Below, piece by piece: positions 5,266 to 44,335 of a DNA stretch of 64,000 nt. Under the pieces are notes generated by a model that saw only the letters and a program-made list of their open reading frames with translations, searched no databases and had not been told where the DNA came from. Made by a program: the position numbers and the translations under genes. The DNA is taken from positions 320,240 through 384,239 of the forward strand of contig CAWIQG010000003.1 of the NCBI GenBank assembly GCA_963838215.1, written 5' to 3'. This stretch comes from an uncultured Bacteroidales bacterium (GTDB taxonomy: Bacteria > Bacteroidota > Bacteroidia > Bacteroidales > VadinHA17). The first letter of the stretch is position 1; each line of letters opens with the position of its first letter.

Positions 5266-5763
5266 CTACTCCCCGGAGCCAGATTTTACATGAACAAGAT
5301 AAACATCATATACTAATGGTGTATAACCTGGTATTGTAAGATATCCTACGGGCCCATAAGCCAGCTTCGAAGGAATGAGGAACATAGCTTTCCCTCCGGC
5401 TTTCATATACGTGATCCCTTCATCAAATCCGGCAATCATATATCCTTCAGCTACAGGAAATATCAGAGTATCGCTTGTCCCGACATTTGTGCCAATAATA
5501 GTCCCGTCAGTGGTTTTAACAGTATATTCCACATAAGCAGTATCACCCATGACAGGTGTGCGTCCAGTACCTACCTGAACATCATAATAATACAAACCGC
5601 TGGGTTTCAAAACAAAATTAATGCTGCTATTACTGCTAAGGAATGTCTTTATCTTAGCGTTCTCTTCCTTTTCATATTTCGCAGAAGGATCGCATGACCA
5701 GAGTGAAATCAGCAAAAGCACCGTCAGTAGAGCAAGTATTCCGGAATTGTATTTTTTTATCAT
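5266..5763 (-). CDS. FKBP-type peptidyl-prolyl cis-trans isomerase, lipoprotein
   Basis: Signal peptide with Cys (LISLWSC). FKBP core GYMIAGFDEGITYMKAGGKAMFLIPSKLAYG. Confidence 0.8.
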   Translation of the reverse strand: MIKKYNSGILALLTVLLLISLWSCDPSAKYEKEENAKIKTFLSSNSSINFVLKPSGLYYYDVQVGTGRTPVMGDTAYVEYTVKTTDGTIIGTNVGTSDTLIFPVAEGYMIAGFDEGITYMKAGGKAMFLIPSKLAYGPVGYLTIPGYTPLVYDVYLVHVKSGSGE

Positions 5764-5826
5764 AGATTTAATTTTTAAGTTTTAGGTACGATCAATAGTT
5801 TAACAACGCAAAAACTATTCCAAATA

Positions 5827-6378
5827 TTATTTGGTCCGCAAGATATTAACATTATAAACAATTATGGCTCTTGAAGGGACCATTTTTCTGTCTCCAATCA
5901 GCCCATATCCTAAAAATGGTGGTATAATAAAAACAGCTTCTGCCCCCGGTTTGAGCATCCGCAGACCTTCATTCAATCCTTGTTCCATTTCACTCTTTCC
6001 TAAAAAAAGTTCCTTTGGACCCAGGTCTTTGGATGAATAACATTTTGTTCCGTCAAGAAGCGAACACTCGTAATCAAAGGTTATTTTATCGCTTTCAACG
6101 AACTTATTCCCTTCTCCCTCCTTTAAAATCTGGTACCACAGACCTGTGGGAGATTCGACCATTTTAAGATTTTTCCGTTCTATATAATTCAATATTCTTT
6201 CCCTGTCTTTCTGTACAAAATACCTGTTCAGATCGGCCATCTCATTTTTTCCCGGTCCAGGTCTTGAAATGGTTTTCTCAGAACTGTTTTTGCATGAAAT
6301 GATTACGAACAATAAGATCGTAAATAAAATATATCTTATTGTCAGATAATTACATCTTATCTTCAAATTTCCAGACAT
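5827..6378 (-). CDS. FKBP-type peptidyl-prolyl cis-trans isomerase, lipoprotein
   Basis: Lipobox FVIISC. FKBP core LNEGLRMLKPGAEAVFIIPPFLGYG. Overlaps the stop of the upstream DHH gene by 29 nt. Confidence 0.8.
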   Translation of the reverse strand: MSGNLKIRCNYLTIRYILFTILLFVIISCKNSSEKTISRPGPGKNEMADLNRYFVQKDRERILNYIERKNLKMVESPTGLWYQILKEGEGNKFVESDKITFDYECSLLDGTKCYSSKDLGPKELFLGKSEMEQGLNEGLRMLKPGAEAVFIIPPFLGYGLIGDRKMVPSRAIIVYNVNILRTK

Positions 6379-7375
6379 TCTCTTTAAGGGCTTTCAGGAA
6401 GTAGTCGATTGTTTTGTCTAATGTACCAGGATATTCGCCACCGGAAGCATTCAGATGGCCCCCACCGGAAAAATATTTTGCGGCAAATTCATTTGAAGGG
6501 AATTGACCTTTTGACCGGAAAGAAAGTTTTATAAACCCATCTTTTTCAATAAACAGGGCTGAGAAATTTATTCCTCTGATAGATAAAGGCAAATTAACAA
6601 ATCCTTCGGTATCTCCTTTAACGTGGTTAAAATCTTTTAAATCATTTTTTGTGAGAAAAATATAAGCGGTTTTATATTCCGGAATCACAACCATTCGCTT
6701 ATTAAGAGCATATCCCTGAAGCCTGATCCTGCCGGAAGAGAAATTATTGTAGATCAGGTTCAGTATTTTTTCCTTTTCAATCCCTGTATCAAGGAGGTCA
6801 GCAACAATACGGAATGTTCTTGAAGAATAGGACCCATGTTCAAAGTTGCCGGTATCTGTAATGATCCCCACATAAAGAGCTTCTGCGTAAGGTCTGCTCA
6901 TAAACTGGTCTTCATTCATTTCACATAAAAGTTCATGAATAAGTTCTGATGTGGAACATTTCGAAGGTTCAGAAATGATCAGATCTGCAAAATTCGCCGG
7001 ATTAAGGTGATGATCAATAACAACTTTCTTCGCATGGGATGCTCTGACTAACTCCTCTGCTTCTCCCAGCCTGTTCGACTGATTAAAATCGAGCATGATG
7101 ATCAGATCAGCCTTTTCAATCAGTTTACTGCATTTTTTTCTCTCTTTTATAAAAATATGTATCAGATCGGCTCCATCCATCCATTTCAGAAACTCCTGCA
7201 GGTAATTTGGTGCCATCATTCCGACATTTCTGCCTCGATTTTTGAGATAATGATATAGCGCTAACTGTGAGCCTATTGCATCACCGTCAGGATTAAGGTG
7301 AGCGATCAGAAGTATATTCTCAGAAGAGGAAAAATGTTTTGATAATTCTTTTGTATATTTGGATAAATCTATCAC
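6350..7375 (-). CDS. DHH-family phosphoesterase (NrnA-like oligoribonuclease/pAp phosphatase)
   Basis: DHH motifs HLNPDGDAIGS, DFNQ, VIDHH and DHHA1 GGGH. GTG start. Confidence 0.8.
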   Translation of the reverse strand: MIDLSKYTKELSKHFSSSENILLIAHLNPDGDAIGSQLALYHYLKNRGRNVGMMAPNYLQEFLKWMDGADLIHIFIKERKKCSKLIEKADLIIMLDFNQSNRLGEAEELVRASHAKKVVIDHHLNPANFADLIISEPSKCSTSELIHELLCEMNEDQFMSRPYAEALYVGIITDTGNFEHGSYSSRTFRIVADLLDTGIEKEKILNLIYNNFSSGRIRLQGYALNKRMVVIPEYKTAYIFLTKNDLKDFNHVKGDTEGFVNLPLSIRGINFSALFIEKDGFIKLSFRSKGQFPSNEFAAKYFSGGGHLNASGGEYPGTLDKTIDYFLKALKENVWKFEDKM

Positions 7376-7460
7376 TTTTGCAATTGTTTTTTCAAGTGGT
7401 TAAAGATAAAAAATATTCCCGAAGAGCAATCCGTTAGTTAAATACCAAAAACAATATTAT

Positions 7461-7901
7461 ATGAATAGTGATTTTACTTTCTCGATTATTAAGCCAAACT
7501 CCGTCAGAACCGGAAAAATCGGACCTATTCTTGCTATGATCAATGAAGGGGGATTCGAAATAGTTGCAATGCGGATGGTCAAAATGACGCTCCAACAGGC
7601 AGAATCATTTTATTCCATCCATAAAGGTAAACCTTTCTTTGACGGACTTGTAGAGTTTATGACATCGGGCCCGGTTGTGGTGATGATATTAAAGCACGAA
7701 AATGCTGTTGATGAATTCAGAAAGCTGATCGGAGCAACAGATCCGGCCAAAGCAGAACCAGGTACTATCAGAAAGATCTTTGCCGTATCGGTGCAGATGA
7801 ATGCGGTTCATGGATCCGATAGTGTTGAAAATGCAAAAAAAGAGGCTGATTTTTTCTTTTCAGAGATTGAGAGATTTTATTCACATGATACTTGCTGTTA
7901 A
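7461..7901 (+). CDS. ndk: nucleoside-diphosphate kinase
   Basis: 146 aa. N-terminus FSIIKPNSV and active-site region NAVHGSDS. Confidence 0.95.
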   Translation: MNSDFTFSIIKPNSVRTGKIGPILAMINEGGFEIVAMRMVKMTLQQAESFYSIHKGKPFFDGLVEFMTSGPVVVMILKHENAVDEFRKLIGATDPAKAEPGTIRKIFAVSVQMNAVHGSDSVENAKKEADFFFSEIERFYSHDTCC

Positions 7902-9913: not shown

Positions 9914-12009
9914 GTTGTGAATTGCTTTGGCTTCGCCGGGCTTCGCTTCGCTCCGGTTCAGTTTGTATCTTTGATATATTGAGCACAACATCGGCTCATG
10001 AGACTGCCGGATGGACTTCGTTGTGAATTGCTTTGGCTTCGCCGAGCTCCGCTTCGCTCCGGTTCAGTTTGTATCTTTGATATATTGAGCACAACGTTTG
10101 GTTTGTACTGCCATCGGTATTCAATGTTGTGAATTGCTTTCAGTTTGTATCTTTGATATATTGAGCACAACGCCTGTTGTTCCCTGTGAGCCACTCATGG
10201 CGTTGTGAATTGCTTTCAGTTTGTATCTTTGATATATTGAGCACAACTTTAATATATAGATAAAATCTACATATTGTGTTGTGAATTGCTTTCAGTTTGT
10301 ATCTTTGATATATTGAGCACAACTCTCCGGGAAATTGTACTTCCCAGTTTCAAGTTGTGAATTGCTTTCAGTTTGTATCTTTGATATATTGAGCACAACA
10401 ATCCGGGACAAAGAATGCTGCACTTTTTGGTTGTGAATTGCTTTCAGTTTGTATCTTTGATATATTGAGCACAACGGTTTCTAGAAGATGTTACGTTAAG
10501 TTTCGGCTGTTGTGAATTGCTTTCAGTTTGTATCTTTGATATATTGAGCACAACGCTGATTCCAAAGGAAGTACACGTTCATCTGTTGTGAATTGCTTTC
10601 AGTTTGTATCTTTGATATATTGAGCACAACAGCAGTTATGGAAGGTAATGCAGTTAGACTGTTGTGAATTGCTTTCAGTTTGTATCTTTGATATATTGAG
10701 CACAACTATTATATTCAGCATACCTTGGAGCATAACTGTTGTGAATTGCTTTCAGTTTGTATCTTTGATATATTGAGCACAACTCTATTGGTGGTTGTAC
10801 AACACCAGCACAGGTTGTGAATTGCTTTCAGTTTGTATCTTTGATATATTGAGCACAACTATGGTATCACTATCCCCGATGATAAAGTAGTTGTGAATTG
10901 CTTTCAGTTTGTATCTTTGATATATTGAGCACAACACTAGGAAGCTTATGAAACTGAGTTCCTTGGTTGTGAATTGCTTTCAGTTTGTATCTTTGATATA
11001 TTGAGCACAACCGTCAATGCGTAGGAAGTGCTTCATAGCGCGTTGTGAATTGCTTTCAGTTTGTATCTTTGATATATTGAGCACAACTCCGTCAGCGCTT
11101 ACGTGCAGCTGCACAACAGGTTGTGAATTGCTTTCAGTTTGTATCTTTGATATATTGAGCACAACTATATATTCAGCATACCTTGGAGCATAACAGTTGT
11201 GAATTGCTTTCAGTTTGTATCTTTGATATATTGAGCACAACAGCATTTGCAACTGGATTACTAGAATACGTAGTTGTGAATTGCTTTCAGTTTGTATCTT
11301 TGATATATTGAGCACAACTCAGTTGATGATTATATCCGAGGTGCAATGGTTGTGAATTGCTTTCAGTTTGTATCTTTGATATATTGAGCACAACTTTTAA
11401 ATTCATTTTCATTATTTCCGAATTGTTGTGAATTGCTTTCAGTTTGTATCTTTGATATATTGAGCACAACATGCTGGTGGAAGATCTAAGTTGCATTGAT
11501 TGTTGTGAATTGCTTTCAGTTTGTATCTTTGATATATTGAGCACAACTGAACTATCTCGTTACACGAATGATATGATAGTTGTGAATTGCTTTCAGTTTG
11601 TATCTTTGATATATTGAGCACAACTTTACACGATACAAGCAAAGGTAAGATATAGTTGTGAATTGCTTTCAGTTTGTATCTTTGATATATTGAGCACAAC
11701 TGATGGTGCGGCTTTAAATAACGATAGCTACGTTGTGAATTGCTTTCAGTTTGTATCTTTGATATATTGAGCACAACTGATGTGGCTATTGGTATGATGC
11801 GACGATATGTTGTGAATTGCTTTCAGTTTGTATCTTTGATATATTGAGCACAACGCACACAACCCTGACTCCTTCGACCTCGCAGTTGTGAATTGCTTTC
11901 AGTTTGTATCTTTGATATATTGAGCACAACTATGCAACATATAGGATCAGTTATTTCAAATTAGTTGTGAATTGCTTTCAGTTTGTATCTTTGATATATT
12001 GAGCACAAC
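9914..12009 (+). CRISPR. CRISPR array, type II-C-like: 27 repeats and 26 spacers
   Basis: The 46-nt repeat GTTGTGAATTGCTTTCAGTTTGTATCTTTGATATATTGAGCACAAC occurs 25 times. Repeats 1-2 (9914-9989, 10020-10095) are 76 nt because of a 30-nt insertion. Spacers are 30-33 nt. The plus-strand orientation is inferred from the tracrRNA anti-repeats and the terminator at 12085. Confidence 0.97.
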
Positions 12010-12084
12010 ATACCAGGTATTAAGTGGCTTAAAACGTGTTCTTTAATATCAAAAGCAGAAAATAAAAAATTGTGCTCTGAAATT

Positions 12085-12114
12085 GCTCCGGAATAACTAC
12101 TTCGGAGCTTTTTT
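12085..12114 (+). terminator. rho-independent terminator downstream of the CRISPR array
   Basis: GCTCCGGA-ATAACTAC-TTCGGAGC gives an 8-bp stem, followed by TTTTTT. Confidence 0.7.
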
Positions 12115-12133
12115 CATTCCTGTGGCCAGGTAA

Positions 12134-12303: not shown

Positions 12304-12750
12304 ATGTCGCAGTCTTTTGTCCAATTCTATGCCCATATTGTTTTTCATACAAAGAACAATATGCAACTAATCAGACCAGAAATCGAGGTTGAATTGTATT
12401 CATACCTTGGGGGTATTCTCAAAAACTATAAATCTAATCCGATCCAGATAGGCGGAACATCTGACCACATCCATATTCTGTGTACTTTACCAAAAACTAT
12501 GGCACCTGCTGACCTGGTGGAGGAGATTAAAAAGAGTTCTTCAAAGTGGATAAAAACAAAGGGAGAAAAATACCTGAACTTCTACTGGCAGGATGGTTAT
12601 GGAGGATTCTCTGTAAGCAGTTCAGGGTTGGAAGCTGTTAAGAAGTACATATTGACTCAGAAAGAGCATCATAAGAAGCTATCAGTAATAGATGAATACA
12701 AGAATCTTCTGGATGCGTACGGTATCCATTATGAAGATAGGTACCTCTGA
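12304..12750 (+). CDS. IS200/IS605-family Y1 transposase-like protein (REP-associated tyrosine transposase, RAYT-like)
   Basis: 148 aa. N-terminus YAHIVFHTKNN, HUH motif DHIHIL, FYWQDGYGGFSV, and a C-terminal Tyr region KKYILTQKEHHKK. Confidence 0.8.
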   Translation: MSQSFVQFYAHIVFHTKNNMQLIRPEIEVELYSYLGGILKNYKSNPIQIGGTSDHIHILCTLPKTMAPADLVEEIKKSSSKWIKTKGEKYLNFYWQDGYGGFSVSSSGLEAVKKYILTQKEHHKKLSVIDEYKNLLDAYGIHYEDRYL

Positions 12751-12888: not shown

Positions 12889-13230
12889 TTAGAACATCTC
12901 AAGTTGCTGGGGTGTTTCCGGACGTTTTGCCGGGTCTCTGCTACGAAAAAACTCCATCATACCGAACTGTTTATCGGTAAGCGTAAAGATTATTATCTCT
13001 CCTTTCGGAGCAAGAAATGACCTGACCCTTTTAATATGAACATCAGCATTTTCCCGGCTGTTACAGTGTCGTACATAAATTGAATATTGCAGCATCGTAA
13101 AACCGTCTTTCTGCAAAGACTTCCTGAATATTGTGTAGTTCTTCCGATCTTTTTTAGTTTCAGTCGGAAGATCAAAAAATACGAAAGCCCACATTATCCT
13201 GTATTGATTTAAACGAGATAGTTCTTCCAT
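12889..13230 (-). CDS. cas2: CRISPR-associated endoribonuclease Cas2
   Basis: 113 aa with the typical type II Cas2 N-terminus RIMWAFVFFDLPTETKKDRKNYTIFRKSLQKDGFTMLQYSIY. Lies directly downstream of cas1. Confidence 0.9.
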   Translation of the reverse strand: MEELSRLNQYRIMWAFVFFDLPTETKKDRKNYTIFRKSLQKDGFTMLQYSIYVRHCNSRENADVHIKRVRSFLAPKGEIIIFTLTDKQFGMMEFFRSRDPAKRPETPQQLEMF

Positions 13231-13247
13231 ATTCGTAAATCAGTTAA

Positions 13248-14153
13248 TCAGCTCATAACCGGATACATAATTTTCCGGGTCTCCCCGTCAAAACATGAAG
13301 CCAGAGAAGCCGTGGTACGTTGCACACCTACCATTAAGGGGCTGCTTTTCCCATCAATAACAACATCAATGACAGGAATCTGCAAAAGTCTTTTTTTGAT
13401 CTCAGGAGACAATTCTTCCAATTCCGGGATTTCCTGAATTATATCAAGCACCAGGGAATCAACATAGGGTCTGAATGGTTCCATAATATCGTCCGCGAGG
13501 CAATATGGATTATATTTATTCCGGTGATGAATTCCAATTGACGGAAAAAGACCTGATGCAATCAGTGACCGTGCAACTATTGCCCTAAGAACTGCATATC
13601 CATAGTTAAGAAGGTTATTTGGTGGTTCACCAAAACGGTGCCTCAAGAAAATTGCACCGCTGAAAAGATTATCCCAATAATATGCCGCAGCCCTGCCTTC
13701 GACATTTCCGGAATCTCCGCTTTTAACATCAGTAAGATAGAAATCCATTTTTTTCGTGTCAATTCCGACTCTTTTCAAGAGAGCTGCCTGGTTTTCAATT
13801 TTTGAAGTGACAGTCTGCTGCCAGAGATTCTTCATAAGAGGTTGTGATGCTTCAAGCTGAGAATACAGTTTTTCTGTAAATGCATGATGCGAAAACATGG
13901 GGAGCATTAAACCATAAGGCAAATGAGAAGTATCACAGCTTAATATGGCTGAATTATTTTCATTCAGTGCCATTATCAAAGCGTTACTGATAATTATCTG
14001 GGGATTGTCAAGTATGACCAGTCCTATGTCTTCAACCGGCACAGAATTATCTTCCTTACTTTCTTCTATAGGAAAACTGACCATCAACTGCATATCCTTT
14101 TTCCTGAGGGTACATGGATTACCGAAGTATAGTGTTCTTTTAATCATTGGCAT
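13248..14153 (-). CDS. cas1: CRISPR-associated endonuclease Cas1 (type II)
   Basis: 301 aa with Cas1 motifs GNVEGRAAAYYW, LNYGYAVLRAIVARSL, GIHHRNKYNPYCLADDIMEPFRP. Sits between cas9 and cas2. Confidence 0.93.
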   Translation of the reverse strand: MPMIKRTLYFGNPCTLRKKDMQLMVSFPIEESKEDNSVPVEDIGLVILDNPQIIISNALIMALNENNSAILSCDTSHLPYGLMLPMFSHHAFTEKLYSQLEASQPLMKNLWQQTVTSKIENQAALLKRVGIDTKKMDFYLTDVKSGDSGNVEGRAAAYYWDNLFSGAIFLRHRFGEPPNNLLNYGYAVLRAIVARSLIASGLFPSIGIHHRNKYNPYCLADDIMEPFRPYVDSLVLDIIQEIPELEELSPEIKKRLLQIPVIDVVIDGKSSPLMVGVQRTTASLASCFDGETRKIMYPVMS

Positions 14154-14243
14154 AAAGAGTTAAATTTCATGAAATGAAAAAACTATTATTACAACCGATG
14201 AGATTCATTTCTTAGCTCTAAAATACTGACGGAAAGGTTGATT

Positions 14244-17200
14244 TTATTTGAAGATAATTTCTCCGTCAGGCTTGATTTCAAAGTCTTTACCTTCAATGGC
14301 ACAAGTAAAACAACTTGCAACAAGACATAAACGGGCTTGATACTTGTTGGGGTCAAAGCTATTATCTCCATTCCCAAGTTTTTCGTTTGGTCTAGCTTCG
14401 ATGTGGTTTTGTAAATATATAAAAGGAGTACCCATTTCATTAAACTTATACACTCTGTAAATTCTTTTTAATAAATCTTGTTTTGGCATATCTTTCAATT
14501 CGTTGATATCATTTGTATAAAAAATTACTTTTGTCCCAACTTTTATTATCGCATCAACAGGGATTTCTGTCTTGATTTTACCCCGACCAACTAAAATAGT
14601 TTTATAGTAGTTATCATTCCTAATATCTTCAGTATATTTAAGTTTGAGCATTGCTAGTTCATATAATCCTACCAATCTAAATGATCTTACCGTTTTGTCA
14701 CCTGTGGTTTTTTCATAATAGAGACAAAGTGTATTATCTTCATTTTGTGCATAAACAAAATGCTTATACTCTTTATCTTTAGATAGAAATGTATGCTTTC
14801 TAATTGGAATTGCTTTATTTGGTGTGAGATAACCTCGACCAGCAACAACTTTACATCTGACTTTCTTAATATAAGCTTTACCAGACGGAAATGGGATAGG
14901 TTCTAGTTTTGCTTGATCGAAAGTTTTCCCGGATTCCATCCTCTTTTCGAGTTCGCTTCTGATAATTTCACGAACTGCCTTATCAACTATATTTTTGCAG
15001 TCATTAATACTTGTAAATGTAGATACCGGATAACGCTCTACCAAACATAGTTGATCCTCAATTTTTATGGCTCCTAATAAACTCTCTTTATGAAGTTGCC
15101 CTCTGATAGAATCCCCTTTAGCAATTAAGGGAATTTTTTTGCCCTCTTTATCTACCTTATAATTCCACTTACCATCAGTATCTATAGATTTTACATATTG
15201 TTGAATGCCACGTTTCCGTATTTTTTTTATTGCTGGGATAAGAGTACTGTTTTTCGCCTGGTAGTTTATTAATACCTCATTATGAATAGATAAGACATAA
15301 TTAGCATTGAATCCATCCCAATCCATTACTCTTTCATGGTAGGTTTCATTTGATTCATTATCTTTAAACTCATTATATTTCATTAATATTTGGTCTCTAA
15401 TAGCTGCCGGCGGTATTAAAGTAAGAATTGCAGCATCAATTGCATGATGGCTATGCTTTTCTCTGTCTTTTTTCTCAACTTTTGGTTGAATCTTATATAT
15501 TTCTCTGAAGGAGGCAGTAATACTTCCTTTTTGGACTTCAACGCTTTTGAAGATCGTTCTTAAAAAAGGTAATGCGTATTTTGTTATTACCTGAGTGTCT
15601 TTTAATTGACTATTACGCCAACCGGATTTATACTCCTTACAGGTAAATGTATCTAACTTTTTACGCCAATAATCCAATTCAAATCTGATTAAATGTCTAC
15701 GTTGAATACAAGCATCCTTAATCTCTTTAGTTGAAGCAAACTTGGTTTTGATTTTCCATTCTTCTAATAATTTCTCTAAATGCTCAACTTTTTCTTCCAT
15801 GAATTTTAAACGAGGTTTTATTGGGGAATATTCTTTCCCGTTTATCATCGCATCGTTTTCGTAATTAGAACATTCACTAGGTAAATGTTTACCTTTTATG
15901 TTTATGTTATAATCTATTTCAGCGATTGTTAGATTTTTTAACTCATTATCAAAACTCATGCTTGCAGGAATAGTATGTTCAAAATTGAACTTTGAACCAT
16001 CAAATAATTCAGTACAATTTATAGTTTTTCCCGTATATAAACATCGTTGATTTTGTTCCATCCATAAACGATATTTGGTAATTATCTTGCTATCCTCAGG
16101 GTTGATAATCATTTTTGGATTGGCTTCAGCTATTTCGCGAATCTTTACTTTATATGAATCATTTTCTTTCTCCCTCTGTCTTTGCCAGGTTTCAATTGCC
16201 TTACGCATATTTGTGTCGTTTAATTCGCGTGCTATTTCAATGACCACACGTGTATTTTCATCAATCTTACCTGACTTGAGTAGATAATTCATTAGTTTCT
16301 TAAGTTCGTGCATTGTACGTAGTGCCATTGGGTTTTTAAAACCTCTACTAATAGGACGAGGGTCTCCCAATAGTTTAGTCGTGAAACCATCTTTCTGAAC
16401 ATTTGGATACTTTTTTATGAATTCATCCACTTTTTCTACTGGAATATAGGATTCTTTCCCATTTTGGATAAATTTTTGGTAAACAGCAGCATCAGTATAA
16501 GTCTCTTGTTCAGAAGGGTGCCATAAGTATTTAATGTTTTCGGAAGGAATATTGTAATATTTTCGCAAACCCTCAAAGATTTTATCGTGTAACCTGCTTG
16601 GTTTTAAAAATAGCGTTTCTTTTTTCGCATTAATTGGCTTTCTTAAGAACGAAAGATATGCTTTCTCAATATTTTGATAAATTAAGCTCCGTTTTTCATC
16701 ATTGATTTTTCCCAACCATGTTTTATTTCCAAAAACTTCAATTATTTTATTAGAAATATCCTTTTTGTCTTCATTATCTAATTGATAATCTTTAGCCATT
16801 CCAAAACGATACTCACTATTCAGTTGATCACTTATCAAACTATTGATAACCATATTGGTATTTATTTCTGTTTTATGATCTTTAATTATTTCTGAAATAG
16901 TTTCCACAATCTTATTGGCATCATCAAGAGTTATCTCGTTATTATTGACAACTTTATGCAGATTAGCCAGATAAACGGATTCGCTATACATAAAGCCTTT
17001 TTGAAGGTAAGGCAATATTTTCTTTATTGCTGAAAGACTTAAGGTTGCATATCCTTGTTGTAGATTTATTTTTGAAAATCTCTTTGCAGATTCCTCATCC
17101 AATTTTAACTTTTGCAAACCAAATTCTTTTAATTTCTCATTACTATCAAAACTGAACAGGACATGCCAAATATCACCAATAGAATAGTTACATATTTCTG

Positions 17201-18386
17201 GTTTATTTTTATTTTGCAGAATCTCATTCCATCCAAAATCTTCTTTCCAGTTATTGCCTAATATTTTTTCAAAATTGTTTAATAAGTTGCATGAAACCAC
17301 TTTTGTATCATTCGAGAATTTCGATTCAATTATGCCTCCTACCTTTTGTACTTGCTTGAGTATTTTAGTGAGCTTAATATCTCTTGATGAATTATAAAAT
17401 AAAGGGTAAATTTCATCATGAAGATATTTAATCTTGTCAACATTTTCAGGAAGTTTGATTTTAAGGTTATTTATAAACACCCACGTCCTAAATTCTTCAT
17501 ACATTGGGTGGCTAATAGGACAGCGAGGTTTATTTTTCTCAAAGGTACAGATTCCTACTAATCCTTTCTGACTTCGTAATGGTCGTTGCCAGATAATTGC
17601 TTTCCATAGTCTTGAATAATCATCTTCTGTTATTTTCTGAATTCGACAAATCTCTGTTAGTTCACGCTCATAATCTGTTCTCAGATTGTACCTTTTTCTT
17701 ATTCTCCCTCTCGAATCTTTTTGAATATGATAAAGAGCTGCACCCAATGTTTTGTATTTTTCAATATATGGAGCAATATCATCATGCCCCTGAGTTCCAG
17801 TTTTTTTACTTCCTTCCAAAATGGTCTTAGCCTCATTCGAATCATCAGCTCTTCCCCTGTATCCTCGTCGTTGAACTAATTGGTAAAAAATCCTTCCAAT
17901 AATATGTGGATTTTTAACAAATACGCTCCTGTCCTTTTCATTCTCACTAATTGCTTTGACTCGAAATATGTAATGACTCTCACCTGGTTCTGCATTAAAT
18001 AAATGAAAATCTGGTTTCAAATCTCCATCAAAATCAAACCTTAGCCATTGAATAAATTTTTCAGATTGAGGATATTCTCTTCCTTTCCCGATTGAGTAAT
18101 GTCTCCATGAATTTAATTCATCGATAGTGAGCGGACATAAGTTTCTTTCAATTAGAAACTCCAATAACTCCCATTTTCTGTATTTCTCTGCTTGATAGTT
18201 TCTCCTTTTACCTCTACTCTCAGTTCTTTTTTTTACAATTGGTATTTCGACCCCTTTTTCTTCACCTACTCCTTTCTCAAAGGTGAGTACACCTTTGTCA
18301 ATAATTTGGTTCTTTGAAACTGAAGAATCTCTTATTGCCCATCCAATTGAGTTACTCCCTAAATCTATTCCTATAATTTTTTCCAT
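14244..18386 (-). CDS. cas9: CRISPR-associated endonuclease Cas9 (type II-C, long Bacteroidetes-like form)
   Basis: 1380 aa. RuvC-I IGIDLGSNSIGWAI, Arg-rich bridge helix RTESRGKRRNYQAEKYRK, RuvC-II VVIEIARE, HNH CLYTGKTI...FEHTIPASMSFDNELKNL...N, and RuvC-III HHAIDAAIL. No csn2 or cas4 is present nearby. Confidence 0.97.
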   Translation of the reverse strand: MEKIIGIDLGSNSIGWAIRDSSVSKNQIIDKGVLTFEKGVGEEKGVEIPIVKKRTESRGKRRNYQAEKYRKWELLEFLIERNLCPLTIDELNSWRHYSIGKGREYPQSEKFIQWLRFDFDGDLKPDFHLFNAEPGESHYIFRVKAISENEKDRSVFVKNPHIIGRIFYQLVQRRGYRGRADDSNEAKTILEGSKKTGTQGHDDIAPYIEKYKTLGAALYHIQKDSRGRIRKRYNLRTDYERELTEICRIQKITEDDYSRLWKAIIWQRPLRSQKGLVGICTFEKNKPRCPISHPMYEEFRTWVFINNLKIKLPENVDKIKYLHDEIYPLFYNSSRDIKLTKILKQVQKVGGIIESKFSNDTKVVSCNLLNNFEKILGNNWKEDFGWNEILQNKNKPEICNYSIGDIWHVLFSFDSNEKLKEFGLQKLKLDEESAKRFSKINLQQGYATLSLSAIKKILPYLQKGFMYSESVYLANLHKVVNNNEITLDDANKIVETISEIIKDHKTEINTNMVINSLISDQLNSEYRFGMAKDYQLDNEDKKDISNKIIEVFGNKTWLGKINDEKRSLIYQNIEKAYLSFLRKPINAKKETLFLKPSRLHDKIFEGLRKYYNIPSENIKYLWHPSEQETYTDAAVYQKFIQNGKESYIPVEKVDEFIKKYPNVQKDGFTTKLLGDPRPISRGFKNPMALRTMHELKKLMNYLLKSGKIDENTRVVIEIARELNDTNMRKAIETWQRQREKENDSYKVKIREIAEANPKMIINPEDSKIITKYRLWMEQNQRCLYTGKTINCTELFDGSKFNFEHTIPASMSFDNELKNLTIAEIDYNINIKGKHLPSECSNYENDAMINGKEYSPIKPRLKFMEEKVEHLEKLLEEWKIKTKFASTKEIKDACIQRRHLIRFELDYWRKKLDTFTCKEYKSGWRNSQLKDTQVITKYALPFLRTIFKSVEVQKGSITASFREIYKIQPKVEKKDREKHSHHAIDAAILTLIPPAAIRDQILMKYNEFKDNESNETYHERVMDWDGFNANYVLSIHNEVLINYQAKNSTLIPAIKKIRKRGIQQYVKSIDTDGKWNYKVDKEGKKIPLIAKGDSIRGQLHKESLLGAIKIEDQLCLVERYPVSTFTSINDCKNIVDKAVREIIRSELEKRMESGKTFDQAKLEPIPFPSGKAYIKKVRCKVVAGRGYLTPNKAIPIRKHTFLSKDKEYKHFVYAQNEDNTLCLYYEKTTGDKTVRSFRLVGLYELAMLKLKYTEDIRNDNYYKTILVGRGKIKTEIPVDAIIKVGTKVIFYTNDINELKDMPKQDLLKRIYRVYKFNEMGTPFIYLQNHIEARPNEKLGNGDNSFDPNKYQARLCLVASCFTCAIEGKDFEIKPDGEIIFK

Positions 18387-18440: not shown

Positions 18441-18526
18441 TACAACATTGAAAGCTTTTCACAATAAGGCTATAAGCCGAAGAAAATCTTAAACCCTGCG
18501 TACTCCGTGGGGTTTTTATTTTTTCT
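18441..18526 (+). ncRNA. tracrRNA candidate A (cas9-proximal, divergent from cas9)
   Basis: Anti-repeat TACAACATTGAAAGCTTTTCACAAT is complementary to repeat nt 1-24, with a 2-nt internal mismatch. It is followed by the nexus AAGGCTATAAGCC and the terminator AAACCCTGCG-TACTC-CGTGGGGTTT plus a U-tract. Ends are approximate. Confidence 0.6.
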
Positions 18527-18589
18527 TTCATTGATTAACGCCCATCCAATGCTGTTGTGATTAAAATTAAGTCCAAGTGCTGTTCCCAT
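18527..18589 (-). pseudogene. decayed 5' stub of a second (older) cas9 gene
   Basis: The minus strand reads ATG GGA ACA GCA CTT GGA CTT AAT TTT AAT CAC AAC AGC ATT GGA TGG GCG TTA ATC AAT GAA, i.e. MGTALGLNFNHNSIGWALINE. This matches the Cas9 RuvC-I consensus (LGLDLGTNSIGWA), with the catalytic Asp replaced by Asn. The frame then runs into the tracr-A terminator. Confidence 0.7.
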
Positions 18590-18620
18590 TTGAATATTTT
18601 TTAATCTTTTTCGTACATCT

Positions 18621-18707
18621 GTTCCAACTGAAGCAATTCACAATAAGGATTATTCCGTTGTGAAAACATTTAGGCTGCCCTCGTCCTTCAATACGGGGGC
18701 ATTTTTT
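18621..18707 (+). ncRNA. tracrRNA candidate B (cas9-distal)
   Basis: Anti-repeat CCAACTGAAGCAATTCACAAT is complementary to repeat nt 1-14 and, past a 1-nt bulge, to nt 16-20. It is followed by the nexus AAGGATTATTCCG (compare S. pyogenes AAGGCUAGUCCG) and the terminator GCCCTCGT-CCTTCAAT-ACGGGGGC plus ATTTTTT. Ends are approximate. Confidence 0.65.
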
Positions 18708-21637: not shown

Positions 21638-21649
21638 GGGAAACTAATA

Positions 21650-21706
21650 AAAAGTAAAAAGTAAAAAGTAAAAAGTGAAAAGTTAAAAGTAAAAAGTAAA
21701 AAGGCA
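21650..21706. repeat. heptamer tandem array (AAAAGTA)n, about 8 units
   Basis: AAAAGTA x3, then AAAAGTG, AAAAGTT, AAAAGTA x2 and AAAAGGC. Begins 13 nt upstream of the recF start codon. Confidence 0.85.
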
Positions 21707-32148: not shown

Positions 32149-32216
32149 TGTGGGTTAAAGTTACCGAATTTTACGCATTAGATTTTGCAAGGCTAAATAA
32201 AATTTGTCTTGCAGGT

Positions 32217-32277
32217 CCTTTAGTCCCTTCGTCTCTTAGTCCCTTAGTCCCTTAGTCCCTTAGTCCCTTAGTCCCTT
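32217..32277. repeat. octamer tandem array (CCTTAGTC)n, about 7.5 units
   Basis: CCTTAGTC CCTTCGTC TCTTAGTC, then CCTTAGTC x4. Located in the divergent region between the addA-like start and mnmA. Confidence 0.9.
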
Positions 32278-32313
32278 AAAAGGATCAATAGCCTTTTTAA
32301 CTATCTTTGCGTT

Positions 32314-35676: not shown

Positions 35677-35897
35677 AACAATAAGTTTTAACGGTTGAAA
35701 GACGCTAAGATTTAACGGCACAACGGCACAATGGCGCAATGGTAATAAGAATATTACATAGTCGAAATCTATTAATTTCAGAGGAAAGTTAGAATAAAAG
35801 ATATTACAAATCAAGTTTTTTTTGATGAATAGGTAAGGATTTAACATTTGAGGCGGGTTATAGGCGACAGGGGATGACTGAGGGTGAGGAACTGAGG

Positions 35898-35980
35898 GAC
35901 TTAGTGACGAAGAGACTTAGAGACTTAGTGACGAAGAGACTTAGAGACTTAGTGACGAAGAGACTTAGAGACTTAGTGAT
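35898..35980. repeat. 24-nt compound tandem repeat (3 x 8-mers), about 3.5 copies
   Basis: GACTTAGTGACGAAGAGACTTAGA x3, plus GACTTAGTGAT. Immediately downstream of the M1 peptidase stop. Confidence 0.9.
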
Positions 35981-39925: not shown

Positions 39926-39932
39926 AGTAATA

Positions 39933-39995
39933 GATTTAAGATTGAAGATTGAAGATTGAAGATTGGAGATTAAAGATTGAAGATTGAAGATTAAA
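39933..39995. repeat. heptamer tandem array (GATTGAA)n, 9 units
   Basis: GATTTAA, GATTGAA x3, GATTGGA, GATTAAA, GATTGAA x2, GATTAAA. Ends 8 nt upstream of the start codon at 39925 and reads AATCTTC on the coding strand. Confidence 0.9.
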
Positions 39996-43063: not shown

Positions 43064-43141
43064 CAGTTATGGCGTTATGCCATTATGCCGTTATGCCGTT
43101 ATGCCGTTATGCCGTTATGCCGTTATGCCGTTGAGCCGTTA
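43064..43141. repeat. octamer tandem array (CCGTTATG)n, about 10 units
   Basis: CAGTTATG, GCGTTATG, CCATTATG, CCGTTATG x5, CCGTTGAG, CCGTTAT. Fills the gap between the CANSDH stop and the nspC start. Confidence 0.9.
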
Positions 43142-44335
43142 TTAAAGTTCCAGATCCACATCGTGAAGCTCTACCCACGGTAAACCCAACCTGTTCAATT
43201 CGCTCATAAACGGATCGGGATCAAATTCTTCTACATTGAACACACCGGGTTTCTTCCATATTCCTTTCAGGTACATCATGGCTCCGATTGCTGCAGGTAC
43301 ACCTGTTGTATAGCTTACTCCCTGTGCTCCTGTTTCTGCATAAGCTGCCTCGTGACTGCAATTATTATAAATATAGTATGTTTTTTCCTTACCGTTCTTT
43401 ATTCCCTTAATGCGGCATCCAATCGAAGTCTGACCTTTATAGTTTTCTCCCAGCCCGCCCGGATCAGGAAGCACGGCTTTCAGGAACTGGATCGGTATTA
43501 TCTCTCTGCCTTCAAACATAATGGGTTCAATGCCGGCCATTCCAATATTCTGGATCACACGCAGATGGGTAAGATATTCCTGCCCGAATGTCATCCAGAA
43601 CCTGGCCCGTTTAAGAGAAGGATAATTCACGACAAGCGATTCAAGTTCCTCATGATAAATTATATAGGATTCTTTTGGGCCAATCCCGGGATAATTCAAT
43701 GGTTTATGTATTTCATGTGGTTTGGTCATTACCCATTCACCATTTTCCCAGTATTTACCCTTTTGTGTTACCTCCCTGATATTAATCTCAGGATTGAAGT
43801 TTGTGGCAAACGGTTTTCCATGATCCCCGGCATTGCAATCGACAATATCAAGGTAATGCAACTCATCGAAATGATGTTTAGCGGCATAAGCTGTAAAGAT
43901 TGAAGTAACTCCGGGATCAAAACCGCAACCAAGTATCGCCGTAATGCCTGCTTTTTTATATCTGTCGCGATAAGCCCACTGCCAGCTGTATTCAAATTTA
44001 GCCTCTTCAAGCGGTTCATAATTAGCGGTATCAAGATAAGCTACACCTGTTTCAAGGCATGCATCCATAATATGAAGATCCTGGTAAGGCAATGCAACAT
44101 TTACCACAATATCAGGTTCATAAGTTCTGATCAGTCTGACAAGCTGCGGAACATTATCAGCATCAACCTGTGCAGTTTTTATCCTATCTTTCCCAATTCT
44201 GTCAGCAAGAGCATCGCATTTGGATTTCGTCCGGCTGGCTAACATAATTTCAGCAAAAACCTCCGGCAGAGAAGCCATTTTATGAACAACAACCGATCCG
44301 ACCCCACCGGCACCAATTACCAAAACTTTTCCCAT
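43142..44335 (-). CDS. saccharopine dehydrogenase-family carboxynorspermidine synthase (CANSDH)
   Basis: 397 aa. Rossmann N-terminus KVLVIGAGGVGSVV. The size and the pairing with nspC are typical of the alternative (nor)spermidine pathway. Confidence 0.8.
   Translation of the reverse strand: MGKVLVIGAGGVGSVVVHKMASLPEVFAEIMLASRTKSKCDALADRIGKDRIKTAQVDADNVPQLVRLIRTYEPDIVVNVALPYQDLHIMDACLETGVAYLDTANYEPLEEAKFEYSWQWAYRDRYKKAGITAILGCGFDPGVTSIFTAYAAKHHFDELHYLDIVDCNAGDHGKPFATNFNPEINIREVTQKGKYWENGEWVMTKPHEIHKPLNYPGIGPKESYIIYHEELESLVVNYPSLKRARFWMTFGQEYLTHLRVIQNIGMAGIEPIMFEGREIIPIQFLKAVLPDPGGLGENYKGQTSIGCRIKGIKNGKEKTYYIYNNCSHEAAYAETGAQGVSYTTGVPAAIGAMMYLKGIWKKPGVFNVEEFDPDPFMSELNRLGLPWVELHDVDLEL

Follow-up and report, generated by a model that had tools for sequence, protein, structure and literature searches.

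In the window, by which we mean the whole stretch of 64,000 nucleotides analysed here, we found a CRISPR array of 27 repeats on the + strand (9914-12009), together with a leader-like region, a RAYT-like transposase gene, cas2, cas1 and cas9, and two tracrRNA-like genes (Table 1). Pfam identifies Cas2, Cas1 and, in a 1380-aa protein, HNH_4 and RuvC_III, and the list of open reading frames shows no additional cas gene in the interval from cas9 to the array. The arrangement cas9-cas1-cas2 without csn2 or cas4, the position of the array beside cas2 and the presence of a tracrRNA with an anti-repeat assign the system to type II-C, and the repeat belongs to the 46-47-nt class of Bacteroidota type II-C arrays.

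Table 1. Features of the CRISPR locus, in window coordinates.
Feature	Position	Strand	Remark
Repeat 1, leader-distal terminal	9914..9989	+	76 nt: nt 1-15 + 30-nt module + nt 16-46
Module copy 1, GGCTTCGCCGGGCTTCGCTTCGCTCCGGTT	9929..9958	+	Flanking TT allows a shift to 9927-9956
Spacer 1, oldest spacer, ordinary 30-mer	9990..10019	+	Sole spacer with a split 3' handle (repeat 2)
Repeat 2	10020..10095	+	76 nt, module at same site as in repeat 1
Module copy 2, GGCTTCGCCGAGCTCCGCTTCGCTCCGGTT	10035..10064	+	Canonical family form (GAGCTC)
Normal 46-nt repeats 3-27 and spacers 3-26	10126..12009	+	Newest end at 12009
Leader-like region with terminator-like hairpin (gctccggaataactacttcggagc + T-run)	12010..12120	+	Conserved beside the single remaining repeat in G209
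RAYT-like Y1 (IS200-like) transposase gene, REP-like hairpins on either side	12304..12750	+	
cas2 (12889-13230), cas1 (13248-14153), cas9 (14244-18386)	12889..18386	-	
Two tracrRNA-like genes	18441..18707	+	Anti-repeats 18441-18512 and 18620-18707

Repeats 3 to 27 are identical copies of the 46-mer GTTGTGAATTGCTTTCAGTTTGTATCTTTGATATATTGAGCACAAC. The two cas-distal repeats, as a previous sequence-only reading of this DNA had noticed, are 76 nt long instead of 46, with a 30-nt insert after repeat nt 15, and the 15 and 31 nt that flank the insert correspond exactly to the consensus repeat. The two inserts differ at 2 positions (a match expected by chance 0.00 times), they are GC-rich (21/30, 70%), the TT on their flanks leaves the boundary ambiguous, and the spacer that lies between the split repeats is an ordinary one, all in agreement with that earlier description. 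Repeat 1 was also recovered, identical and 76 nt long, from an independently assembled ENA metagenome contig of 746 kb (L013), the sole other strain-level contig found; an assembly artefact of the window's genome, a fair concern for CRISPR arrays, which are prone to misassembly, is therefore extremely improbable, and the occurrence of the same architecture in 7 other genomes speaks against it as well. Among other metagenomic data, the Logan contigs with Cas2 end short of the array, and a search of the JGI metagenomes with the trailer junction TTTATTCCCTGTTGTGAATTG returned one chance match only, in an unrelated GC-rich contig (L029). Exact-protein look-ups of the small open reading frames across the split repeats gave nothing on record, and spacers 1 and 2 have no genomic match, so that self-targeting as a reason for silencing them is unsupported.

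We place the module-bearing end of the array at its old, leader-distal and transcription-upstream end, because the comparison of strains, the layout of the locus and the complementarity of the tracrRNA all point in this direction. L013 and the window, whose flanks are 99.6-99.7% identical, have spacers 1-11 in common and in the same order and unrelated spacers from 12 onward, an argument that leans on alignment scores and not on identities, the spacer sequences of L013 being noisy; spacer 1 has a noisy homologue at the same position in L013 and is otherwise unmatched in the genome. On the cas side, the leader is also preserved in another genome (G209), and a further one (G496) has the same layout. 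In published II-C arrays the repeat promoters drive transcription toward the leader, and GTTGT lies at the leader-distal end (PMC8092290). Finally, both anti-repeats pair with nt 1-20 of the repeat in a + strand crRNA, which puts the insert, as had been proposed, in the part of the repeat that pairs with the tracrRNA, at the boundary between the U-bulge and the upper stem. The accompanying expectation that the two units probably cannot form normal duplexes was overstated: of the two, only repeat 2 is the 3' handle of a spacer on the crRNA strand, so that the spacer-1 crRNA is the only one to use a split repeat, and in cofold predictions the pairing of nt 1-15 with the tracrRNA is kept despite the insert.

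The insert is a copy of a family of discrete, small, non-coding insertion modules of 28-41 nt, with the consensus 5' G(G/A)CTTCG(C/T)CGAGCTC - variable middle - (C/T)CGGTT 3'. Its 5' 15-mer, GRCTTCGYCGAGCTC, for which the reversed control gave 0-1 occurrences, occurs 9 times in the window's genome; 26/37 genomes of the genus have it, in up to 27 copies, versus 1/24 other genera. The search for further genomic copies of the 30-mer, which the sequence-only reading had suggested, did tie it to dispersed repeats of its genome: insert 2 matches pieces of a dispersed element of ~177 nt and has a free-standing 27/30 copy at C3:388006-387977, and in other species non-CRISPR DNA holds 30-nt members up to 28/30 identical to it. 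The boundaries of the module stay fixed from one context to another, as befits a discrete unit: its two ends are constant across the CRISPR repeats, the 177-nt element, a second element described below (element X) and the free-standing copies. It differs from a MITE in that it has no terminal inverted repeats, only the ambiguous TT at its junctions and a fixed orientation; its halves are direct, not inverted, repeats of GCTTCGC (TRF period 10). As single-stranded DNA the two 30-mers form no significant hairpin (z = 0.12 and 0.88), and a 39-nt subtype in G209 is the only one that folds (z = -3.45). Rfam searches of four module or element loci and of the window gave nothing except two tRNAs. The window also contains many tandem arrays of 7-8 nt, whose units differ from the module.

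Filled and empty sites of the module exist among paralogous copies of the same element. Element X, which is MITE-like and ~90 nt long, is empty (..AAATTGATTTT^CTTCGCTCC.., the caret marking the insertion point) at C3:136k, C3:1033k and C6:152k, whereas at C6:171k, C3:1684k and C3:1332k the same point is occupied by a 35-37-nt module, flanked by TT on each side exactly as in the CRISPR repeats. For the CRISPR repeats, ~230 empty copies in the genus stand against 12 filled copies in 8 genomes. The insertion site in the repeat is GCTTT^CA, between nt 15 and 16, with the target GAATTGCTTT^CAG and the longer context GTGAATTGCTTT^CAGTTTG. Repeat nt 7-15 (AATTGCTTT^C) resemble the favoured site of the module in element X (AATTGATTTT^C), and this likeness may be the reason for recurrent insertion at this point, the shared target motif AATTGNTTT being limited to these two contexts while other copies show just ATT/TTT upstream. 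The boundary between nt 15 and 16 also recurs in orphan repeats of the genome G200, in which the first 15 nt are duplicated, which is consistent with a hot spot for nicking.

In the same orientation and at the same nucleotide, the module was found in leader-distal or orphan type II-C repeats of 7 other Bacteroidota genomes, which belong to at least 5 genera, bringing to 8 the genomes that share site and orientation. Three arrays begin with two module-bearing repeats (M M) followed by normal repeats (N). In G385 (M M N...) repeat 1 is degraded, in G388 (M M N...) the module copies are truncated, G237 reads M..M N M, and G496 reads M N x17, with cas2/cas1/cas9 beyond the leader. Orphan repeats with the module occur in G104 and in G236 (contig L092, labelled 'Alkalitalea sp.'), and in G209 a single repeat with the hairpin subtype of the module lies beside a homologous leader and RAYT. 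The L092 case is the one real case that remained after filtering of a contig scan with the 17-mer TTGCTTTGRCTTCGYCG, which was unspecific and gave at least 120 chance matches, and a class-level sample outside the order contained no case of the repeat-specific pattern. With the same site occupied in 7 other genomes, the earlier suggestion that the module was inserted twice at one site becomes a live option, and from these sequences we lean towards considering GCTTT^CA a recurrent landing site in the repeat and not the scene of a one-off accident.

The reading that we consider, on balance, the probable one is that of a site- and orientation-specific mini-insertion, similar to the small dispersed repeats (SDRs) of cyanobacteria, which would survive only where crRNAs are dispensable. 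The module would enter in one orientation, directly 3' of a short T-run, leaving TT at both junctions, which could be a target duplication of 2 bp or else belong to the element as its end. Since spacers are added at the cas-proximal leader and each repeat has its own promoter, the cas-distal repeats serve only the oldest crRNAs; insertions in them would be effectively neutral and persist, while those in working repeats would be lost. We infer that the module passed from repeat 1 to repeat 2, most likely via gene conversion between repeats or a second insertion, and such a spread to the neighbouring repeat would give rise to the 'M M N N N ...' pattern. The geometry fits both a single-strand 'peel and paste' of HUH/Y1 type and template switching during replication. 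What counts against our reading is that a significant hairpin is absent from the 30-nt subtype (z 0.1 to 0.9), in which it differs from the substrates of known Y1 enzymes.

Among the other explanations, the sequence-only reading had suggested a collapsed REP hairpin (M1) and a link with the adjoining RAYT, which would have placed it in the repeat. A RAYT-like gene and REP hairpins do adjoin the array in the window's genome and what remains of the array in G209, insert 1 does read TTCGCC-GGGCTT, and the junctions (target ..TT ^ element ..TT ^, in a single orientation and without a long duplication) would be compatible with a Y1 'peel and paste'. However, the GGGCTT of insert 1 corresponds to two derived transitions from GAGCTC, the family consensus found in insert 2 and in >100 copies in the genus, the REP M1 hairpins belong to another family of sequences, and the 30-nt form has no hairpin. 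Moreover, Y1 transposase genes, six of which (RAYT-like) are in the window's genome, are present in 50/61 relatives, genera without the module included, and show no clear correlation with its occurrence among these 61: one relative with a 66%-identical RAYT orthologue (G019) has 0 copies of the module 15-mer, and another that has the 15-mer (G044) has no Y1 match. Neither the hairpin nor the RAYT link found support, and a REP/RAYT product is in our opinion very unlikely. That Cas1-Cas2 aberrantly integrated a self-derived prespacer of 30 nt within the repeat would be in line with the position of the insert and with its length, which is indeed exactly that of a spacer, but the significance given to this length did not hold, since members of the family range from 28 to 41 nt, 30-nt members are common outside CRISPR, and there is no duplication of repeat length around the insert, only TT. 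Furthermore, a unit with the same ends lies inside non-CRISPR elements that have empty paralogues, and one sequence family at the site in 8 genomes is not expected of random prespacers. The missing repeat duplication, the non-CRISPR copies and the recurrence effectively refute an origin as a spacer, to which we give next to no chance.

More serious, although still improbable in our judgement, is a single ancient insertion in the terminal repeat of an ancestral II-C array, after which the M repeat would have moved with the locus, vertically and horizontally; on the same improbable account, its flanks would have been kept repeat-like by gene conversion while the middle of the module diverged freely. 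This would suit the CRISPR copy of G496, the only type-b module of that genome, better explained by inheritance along with the locus than by a local insertion, as well as the pairing of the GATTTC...CCAATT module variant with the CAAATTG repeat variant in G104, G236, G237 and G496, which hints at co-descent of module and repeat; both points count against our own reading. It would also suit the fact that no part of an array is better conserved than its terminal units (PMC12839519). Against it, at least 4 different, unrelated middle segments (CGCTTCGCTC, CACTACGTTC, GCAAAAAAAGTT and the hairpin ATCCCGCATCTGCGGGAT) occupy the same site across arrays, and CGCTTCGCTC and the hairpin segment are also found in non-CRISPR copies; in G237, G388 and the window's genome the CRISPR-borne copy resembles a dispersed copy of the same genome, in G237 and G388 most closely. 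In addition, most complete arrays of this type lack an M repeat, the genera do not share a conserved spacer 1, and the flanks of M repeats equal the current repeat of their own array. In the window's genome and G496 the identity of these halves with the current repeat would not be expected of very old relics, and this counts against our own reading. It is also rather doubtful that the module is a selected 'array cap', a 30-nt heterology that would block the repeat-repeat recombination by which the anchor end is deleted or, in a variant no less doubtful, would silence the oldest units by moving the -33 element away from the -7 box and breaking the upper stem. In its favour, 4/5 arrays, from different genera, carry the module in their first one or two repeats, mutations of terminal repeats have been proposed to lower recombinational deletion (PMC12839519), and the TTG of repeat nt 2-4, the -33 element of the repeat promoter (PMC8092290), is 30 nt further from the -7 box when the repeat carries the module. 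Yet most arrays of this type have no module, M repeats also occur as orphans without an array (G104, G236, G209), M copies decay (G385, G388), and the module is also found in unrelated intergenic elements. A speculative extension, which we think unlikely, is that the module is a mini-element homing to CRISPR repeats, or else a footprint left by site-specific nicking at GCTTT^CA, and that a single-strand (HUH-type) enzyme of the host or the element would recognise AATTGNTTT^C, each insertion turning a working repeat into a recombination-proof, promoter-weakened 'cap'.

The module most resembles the SDRs of Nostoc and Anabaena, which Elhai et al. are said to have described in 2008 as non-coding repeats of ~21-27 nt, present as discrete insertions in other repeats and in intergenic DNA, and which reportedly show filled and empty sites in related sequences, several subfamilies and no long target duplication; we know of no enzyme that moves them. 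Both are tens of nucleotides long and non-coding, with filled and empty sites, several subfamilies and no long target duplication, but the module belongs to Bacteroidota, has another sequence and a length of 28-41 nt, and is distinguished by its strict orientation, by the TT at its two junctions and by a site in CRISPR repeats at which it recurs. Mobile non-coding DNA that interrupts an array and usually leaves the rest intact is also known from a MITE that splits arrays of Anabaena PCC 7120 (bioRxiv 10.1101/2020.04.14.041012) and from mobile elements in Sulfolobus arrays (PMC4390879). Those elements, however, measure 100-1500 bp, have inverted terminal repeats and lie at idiosyncratic sites, whereas the module has 30 nt and no inverted repeats, and is found at the same repeat nucleotide in 8 genomes, without exception either at the array's old end or in an orphan repeat. 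Degenerate terminal repeats (PMC12839519) likewise are leader-distal repeats that deviate, in the units most conserved between strains; here the deviation is a defined insertion and not point mutation, the 46 repeat positions being perfect, and that survey has 0 mentions of 'insertion' or 'indel'. With REP/REPIN-RAYT systems (PMC3116915) and IS200/IS605 the module has in common short GC-rich intergenic units and a Y1 gene beside the locus, and its single orientation, its position 3' of a short target word and the lack of a long duplication would fit Y1 chemistry, but its 30-nt form lacks a REP hairpin, REP units in inverted pairs are absent, and no clear correlation with Y1 genes was seen.

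What appeared as a single oddity in one array is a pattern, in which a non-coding module of 30-40 nt without inverted repeats occupies one fixed nucleotide of a Cas9-type repeat in several genera and persists at the end of the array that holds the oldest memories. To our knowledge, the movement of very small dispersed repeats has awaited an explanation ever since the SDRs of cyanobacteria, and the module, with a defined target (GAATTGCTTT^CAG) and both filled and empty sites, offers a tractable model for it. In practice, software for array calling and orientation will miss or mis-score terminal repeats of 76 nt. Our analysis also suggests that Cas9 guide RNAs of this type may tolerate a 30-nt insertion after repeat nt 15, a possible tolerance that would have a bearing on guide design. 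The finding provides a concrete, testable idea on the unusual stability of terminal CRISPR units and, if the module does home to CRISPR repeats, such an element would shape which end of a II-C array freezes as long-term memory.

The window carries a type II-C CRISPR-Cas locus with cas9, cas1, cas2 and an array in which repeats 3-27 are all one identical 46-mer, GTTGTGAATTGCTTTCAGTTTGTATCTTTGATATATTGAGCACAAC. Repeats 1 and 2 reach 76 nt each through extra sequence placed after nt 15, the other 15 + 31 positions being perfect; the two inserts differ from each other at 2 positions, and a search of the window gave no further match at <=3 mismatches. What the sequence-only reading described of the finding is correct throughout, including the ambiguity of the insert boundary by TT, and its interpretation was supported in part. 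The inserts are members of a dispersed family of mini-insertions (modules), which in this order recur between nt 15 and 16 of type II-C repeats that are old or orphaned.

A search of the whole genome (G000) showed insert 2 to be constructed like the pieces of a dispersed intergenic family, with a 5' end G(G/A)CTTCG(C/T)CGAGCTC, a 3' end (C/T)CGGTT and a variable middle, which either resembles CGCTTCGCTC or is a small hairpin (for example TCCCGCTTAGGCGGGA). Looking for other copies of the 30-mer, as had been advised, thus yielded a dispersed family with a free-standing close relative, together with a ~177-nt composite element present in about ten copies; the family copies in this genome are intergenic without exception, and an Rfam search of the module and element loci, the ~177-nt element included, matched no family. 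What had been taken for a collapsed REP M1 hairpin, the TTCGCC-GGGCTT look of insert 1, amounts to two transitions from the family's GAGCTC. The commonest host of the module is a ~90-nt MITE-like element, element X (GAAAATCAATTTATTTACCCC...GGGGTAAA.GAAGAAAATCAAT, two GC hairpins). Decisively, element X is empty at three loci and filled at three with the same junctions, which makes the unit a discrete insertion module; in the filled copies TT lies on each side of the unit, as in the CRISPR repeats (GCTTT/unit...GGTT/CAG, slashes marking junctions). The copy at C3:1684k holds two more nested insertions, one of them a reverse-oriented module at the opposite end. The module 5' 15-mer occurs in 26/37 sampled genomes of the genus, in up to 27 copies, and in 1/24 other genera of the order, with a reversed control essentially at zero. 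Modules of other species are 28-41 nt long, and several are 30-mers that lie in X-like elements and match insert 2 at up to 28/30 positions; since the family spans these lengths and has 30-mers outside CRISPR, the spacer size stressed earlier is coincidental. Many intergenic gaps of the window also hold tandem arrays of 7-8-nt units that differ from the module units and resemble cyanobacterial heptamer repeats; cyanobacteria have small dispersed repeats as well.

Features of the locus, of the module family and of split repeats (M, module-bearing repeat; N, normal repeat; C2, C3, C4 and C6, contigs of G000; other G-numbers, comparison genomes)
Feature	Position	Strand	Remarks
cas9	14244-18386	minus	
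cas1	13248-14153	minus	
cas2	12889-13230	minus	
RAYT-like Y1 transposase gene	12304-12750	plus	
CRISPR array	9914-12009		27 repeats
Insert 1	9929-9958		repeat 1; GGCTTCGCCGGGCTTCGCTTCGCTCCGGTT
Insert 2	10035-10064		repeat 2; GGCTTCGCCGAGCTCCGCTTCGCTCCGGTT
Spacers 10 and 16	10707-10737, 11166-11195		TATTATATTCAGCATACCTTGGAGCATAACT vs TATATATTCAGCATACCTTGGAGCATAACA
Spacer 19	11396-11425		
tracrRNA-like gene 1	18441-18512		anti-repeat complementary to plus-strand repeat nt 1-20
tracrRNA-like gene 2	18620-18707		anti-repeat complementary to plus-strand repeat nt 1-20
Tandem arrays	21648-21703, 32215-32278, 35891-35979, 39932-39992, 43066-43142, others		units TAAAAAG, GTCCCTTA, GACTTAGA, AGATTGA, GTTATGCC
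Free-standing 30-mer	C3:388006-387977		27/30 identical to insert 2
~177-nt composite dispersed element	C6:257288-257464, C3:233273-233451, C3:1665269-1665450		two module copies, TTGAA...TTCAA ends; about 10 further partial copies
Element X, empty	C3:136240-136350, C3:1033160-1033275, C6:152860-152975		...GTAAATTGATTTT/CTTCGCTCC...
Element X, filled	C6:171720-171866, C3:1684295-1684500, C3:1332330-1332466		35-37-nt unit at the same point
Y1/RAYT-like paralogues	C3:332543, C3:41308, C2:32385, C3:1438029, C2:17179, C3:1795884		
Split repeat, G104 (same genus)			orphan; normal six-repeat array elsewhere in genome; GTTGTGATTTGCTTT[GGCTTCGCCGATTTCCGCTGCGCTCCATT]CAAATTG...
Split repeat, G209 (same genus; locus L057)	G209:C1:1279500-1286500	minus	one repeat left, beside homologous leader, REPs and RAYT; no cas genes; module a 39-nt hairpin subtype
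Split repeat, G236 (record labelled Alkalitalea sp.)			orphan
Split repeat, G496			cas layout as in window; M N x17
Split repeats, G385			M (decayed) M N...
Split repeats, G388			M M N..., both M partly truncated
Split repeats, G237			array ended by contig edge; isolated M, then M N M

Repeats of the window's type split after GCTTT were sought at three levels, genus (212 genomes), order (401) and class (401), with a filtered collection scan as an additional source, and were found in seven further genomes; these counts are from samples of species representatives, placed only at the level of same genus, order or class. The module points the same way in each of the twelve split repeats and lies after the T-run at repeat nt 13-15, with its TT end before CA. 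Unsplit intact repeats of this type number about 230, in 25 genomes of the genus, M repeats are absent from most complete arrays of the type, and the repeat-specific pattern revealed no split repeat in about 385 genomes of other orders of the class. The G209 locus is a cas-less relic, where the split repeat, the conserved leader, the REP hairpins and a RAYT gene of 72% identity give way to unrelated genes. In the G385 array (L189, G385:C14, minus strand), two normal repeats are separated by ~2.3 kb of non-repeat DNA (locus positions about 5480-7760), which is probably an insertion such as an IS element. In another genome, an orphan repeat directly upstream of a gene (L051, G200:C127:23833-23900) is preceded, 22 nt upstream, by a second copy of its first 15 nt (GTTGTGAATTGCTTT-TGCGATG-GTTGTGAATTGCTTTCAG...); the break is once more between repeat nt 15 and 16, and the structure may reflect a site prone to nicking or a repeat promoter that has been domesticated.

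The same locus lies on a 746-kb contig of an independent ENA metagenome (L013/L014; ENA ERZ25039473 contig_17701), with flanks 99.6-99.7% identical. Its repeat 1 is a 76-mer identical to that of the window, and its repeat 2 is 64 nt, above normal length and of other sequence, a difference given no weight here in view of the noisy consensus described below; as far as can be told, the split repeats are not an artefact. When the arrays are compared (L013:7890-10140, 29 repeats, vs 27 in the window), spacers 1-6, 8, 9 and 11 are recognisable in the same order, and from spacer 12 onward the two are unrelated, which marks the cas-distal end as old and the cas-proximal end as the site of additions. 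The shared L013 spacers look like a noisy consensus, being 10-50% divergent with indels although the repeats are perfect and the flanks near-identical; several 'spacers' contain repeat fragments and cas9 is broken into four ORFs, so that a consensus artefact of long-read metagenome assembly is probable but not proven. In the window, spacers 10 and 16 are near-identical, and spacer 19 matches C4:1117251-1117275 at 23/25 positions, which may be a partial self-target or prophage target.

The ~110 nt after repeat 27, with a terminator-like hairpin, are conserved beside the lone repeat of G209 (another species), as expected of a leader. Since both anti-repeats are complementary to the plus-strand repeat, crRNAs are read from the plus strand toward the leader, the arrangement already published for II-C arrays of Bacteroidota whose promoters are embedded in the repeats (PMC8092290). 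It follows that repeat 1 serves no spacer as 3' handle and that split repeat 2 is used by the spacer-1 crRNA only. The earlier suggestion that the split units probably cannot form normal duplexes with tracrRNA was too strong, since the short upper stem (CAGUU/AACUG) is all that cofold prediction has them lose; repeat nt 1-15 are predicted to keep pairing to either tracrRNA. The insert also pushes TTG (repeat nt 2-4) thirty bases from the -7 box (nt 23-30), and this separation may weaken the promoters of repeats 1 and 2.

Inheritance from a single origin could in principle explain all split repeats, and is compatible with the pairing of module variant GATTTC...CCAATT with repeat variant CAAATTG in four genomes and with the lack of any other type-b module in the G496 genome. 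We nevertheless consider it unlikely, because four unrelated middle segments (CGCTTCGCTC, CACTACGTTC, GCAAAAAAAGTT and a hairpin) are found at the same site, depending on the array, the CRISPR-borne module is nearest to its own genome's dispersed copy in G237, G388 and G000, the repeat halves around each module are that array's current variant, and spacer 1 differs between genera. The CGCTTCGCTC and hairpin middles are also found in non-CRISPR copies. Probably there were several insertions and some co-descent. The M copies within an array are near-identical (28/30 in the window, 29/30 in G388, identical in G237), from which it follows that the second copy arose locally, possibly by gene conversion from a neighbouring repeat, by another insertion of the same origin, or by copying at acquisition with precise leader-proximal loss; this last, as sole route, is hard to reconcile with the M N M order in G237. 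Tolerance is the best explanation for the bias towards leader-distal and orphan repeats, since only in these would a split do no harm. That M repeats are selected as a recombination-proof 'cap' of the array (compare PMC12839519) seems to us improbable, even more so than a single origin. We favour, with some confidence, a discrete small insertion module that enters in one orientation, recurrently between repeat nt 15 and 16, and is tolerated at the old end and in orphans.

As for mechanism, AATTGNTTT ahead of the junction is common to the insertion site in element X (AAATTGATTTT/C) and to that in the repeat (GAATTGCTTT/C), and the remaining contexts share only ATT/TTT upstream, so that a target motif is suggestive, not established. 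Fixed orientation, no inverted termini and a duplication of <=2 bp speak against a classical MITE and fit either a single-strand HUH/Y1-type reaction, in which target word and element end would both end in TT, or template switching via short homologies. A fold test of the 30-nt subtype gave no significant hairpin. RAYT-like genes, emphasised by the sequence-only reading, are almost ubiquitous in the order (50/61 genomes), and their occurrence did not track that of the module in this sample. The window's genome has six Y1/RAYT-like paralogues.

In concept, the module comes closest to cyanobacterial small dispersed repeats, tiny units reportedly inserted in other repeats (Elhai, 2008), for which we know of no enzyme. 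MITE and IS insertions in CRISPR arrays are known; unlike the module, they are large and idiosyncratic. In our literature search, no account turned up of type II-C terminal repeats that carry a conserved insertion of ~30 nt at one set position, and a survey of terminal-repeat degeneration reports substitutions only (PMC12839519). The finding involves two known kinds of phenomenon, small dispersed repeats and mobile DNA in CRISPR arrays, and the well-defined target of the module makes its mechanism open to testing.
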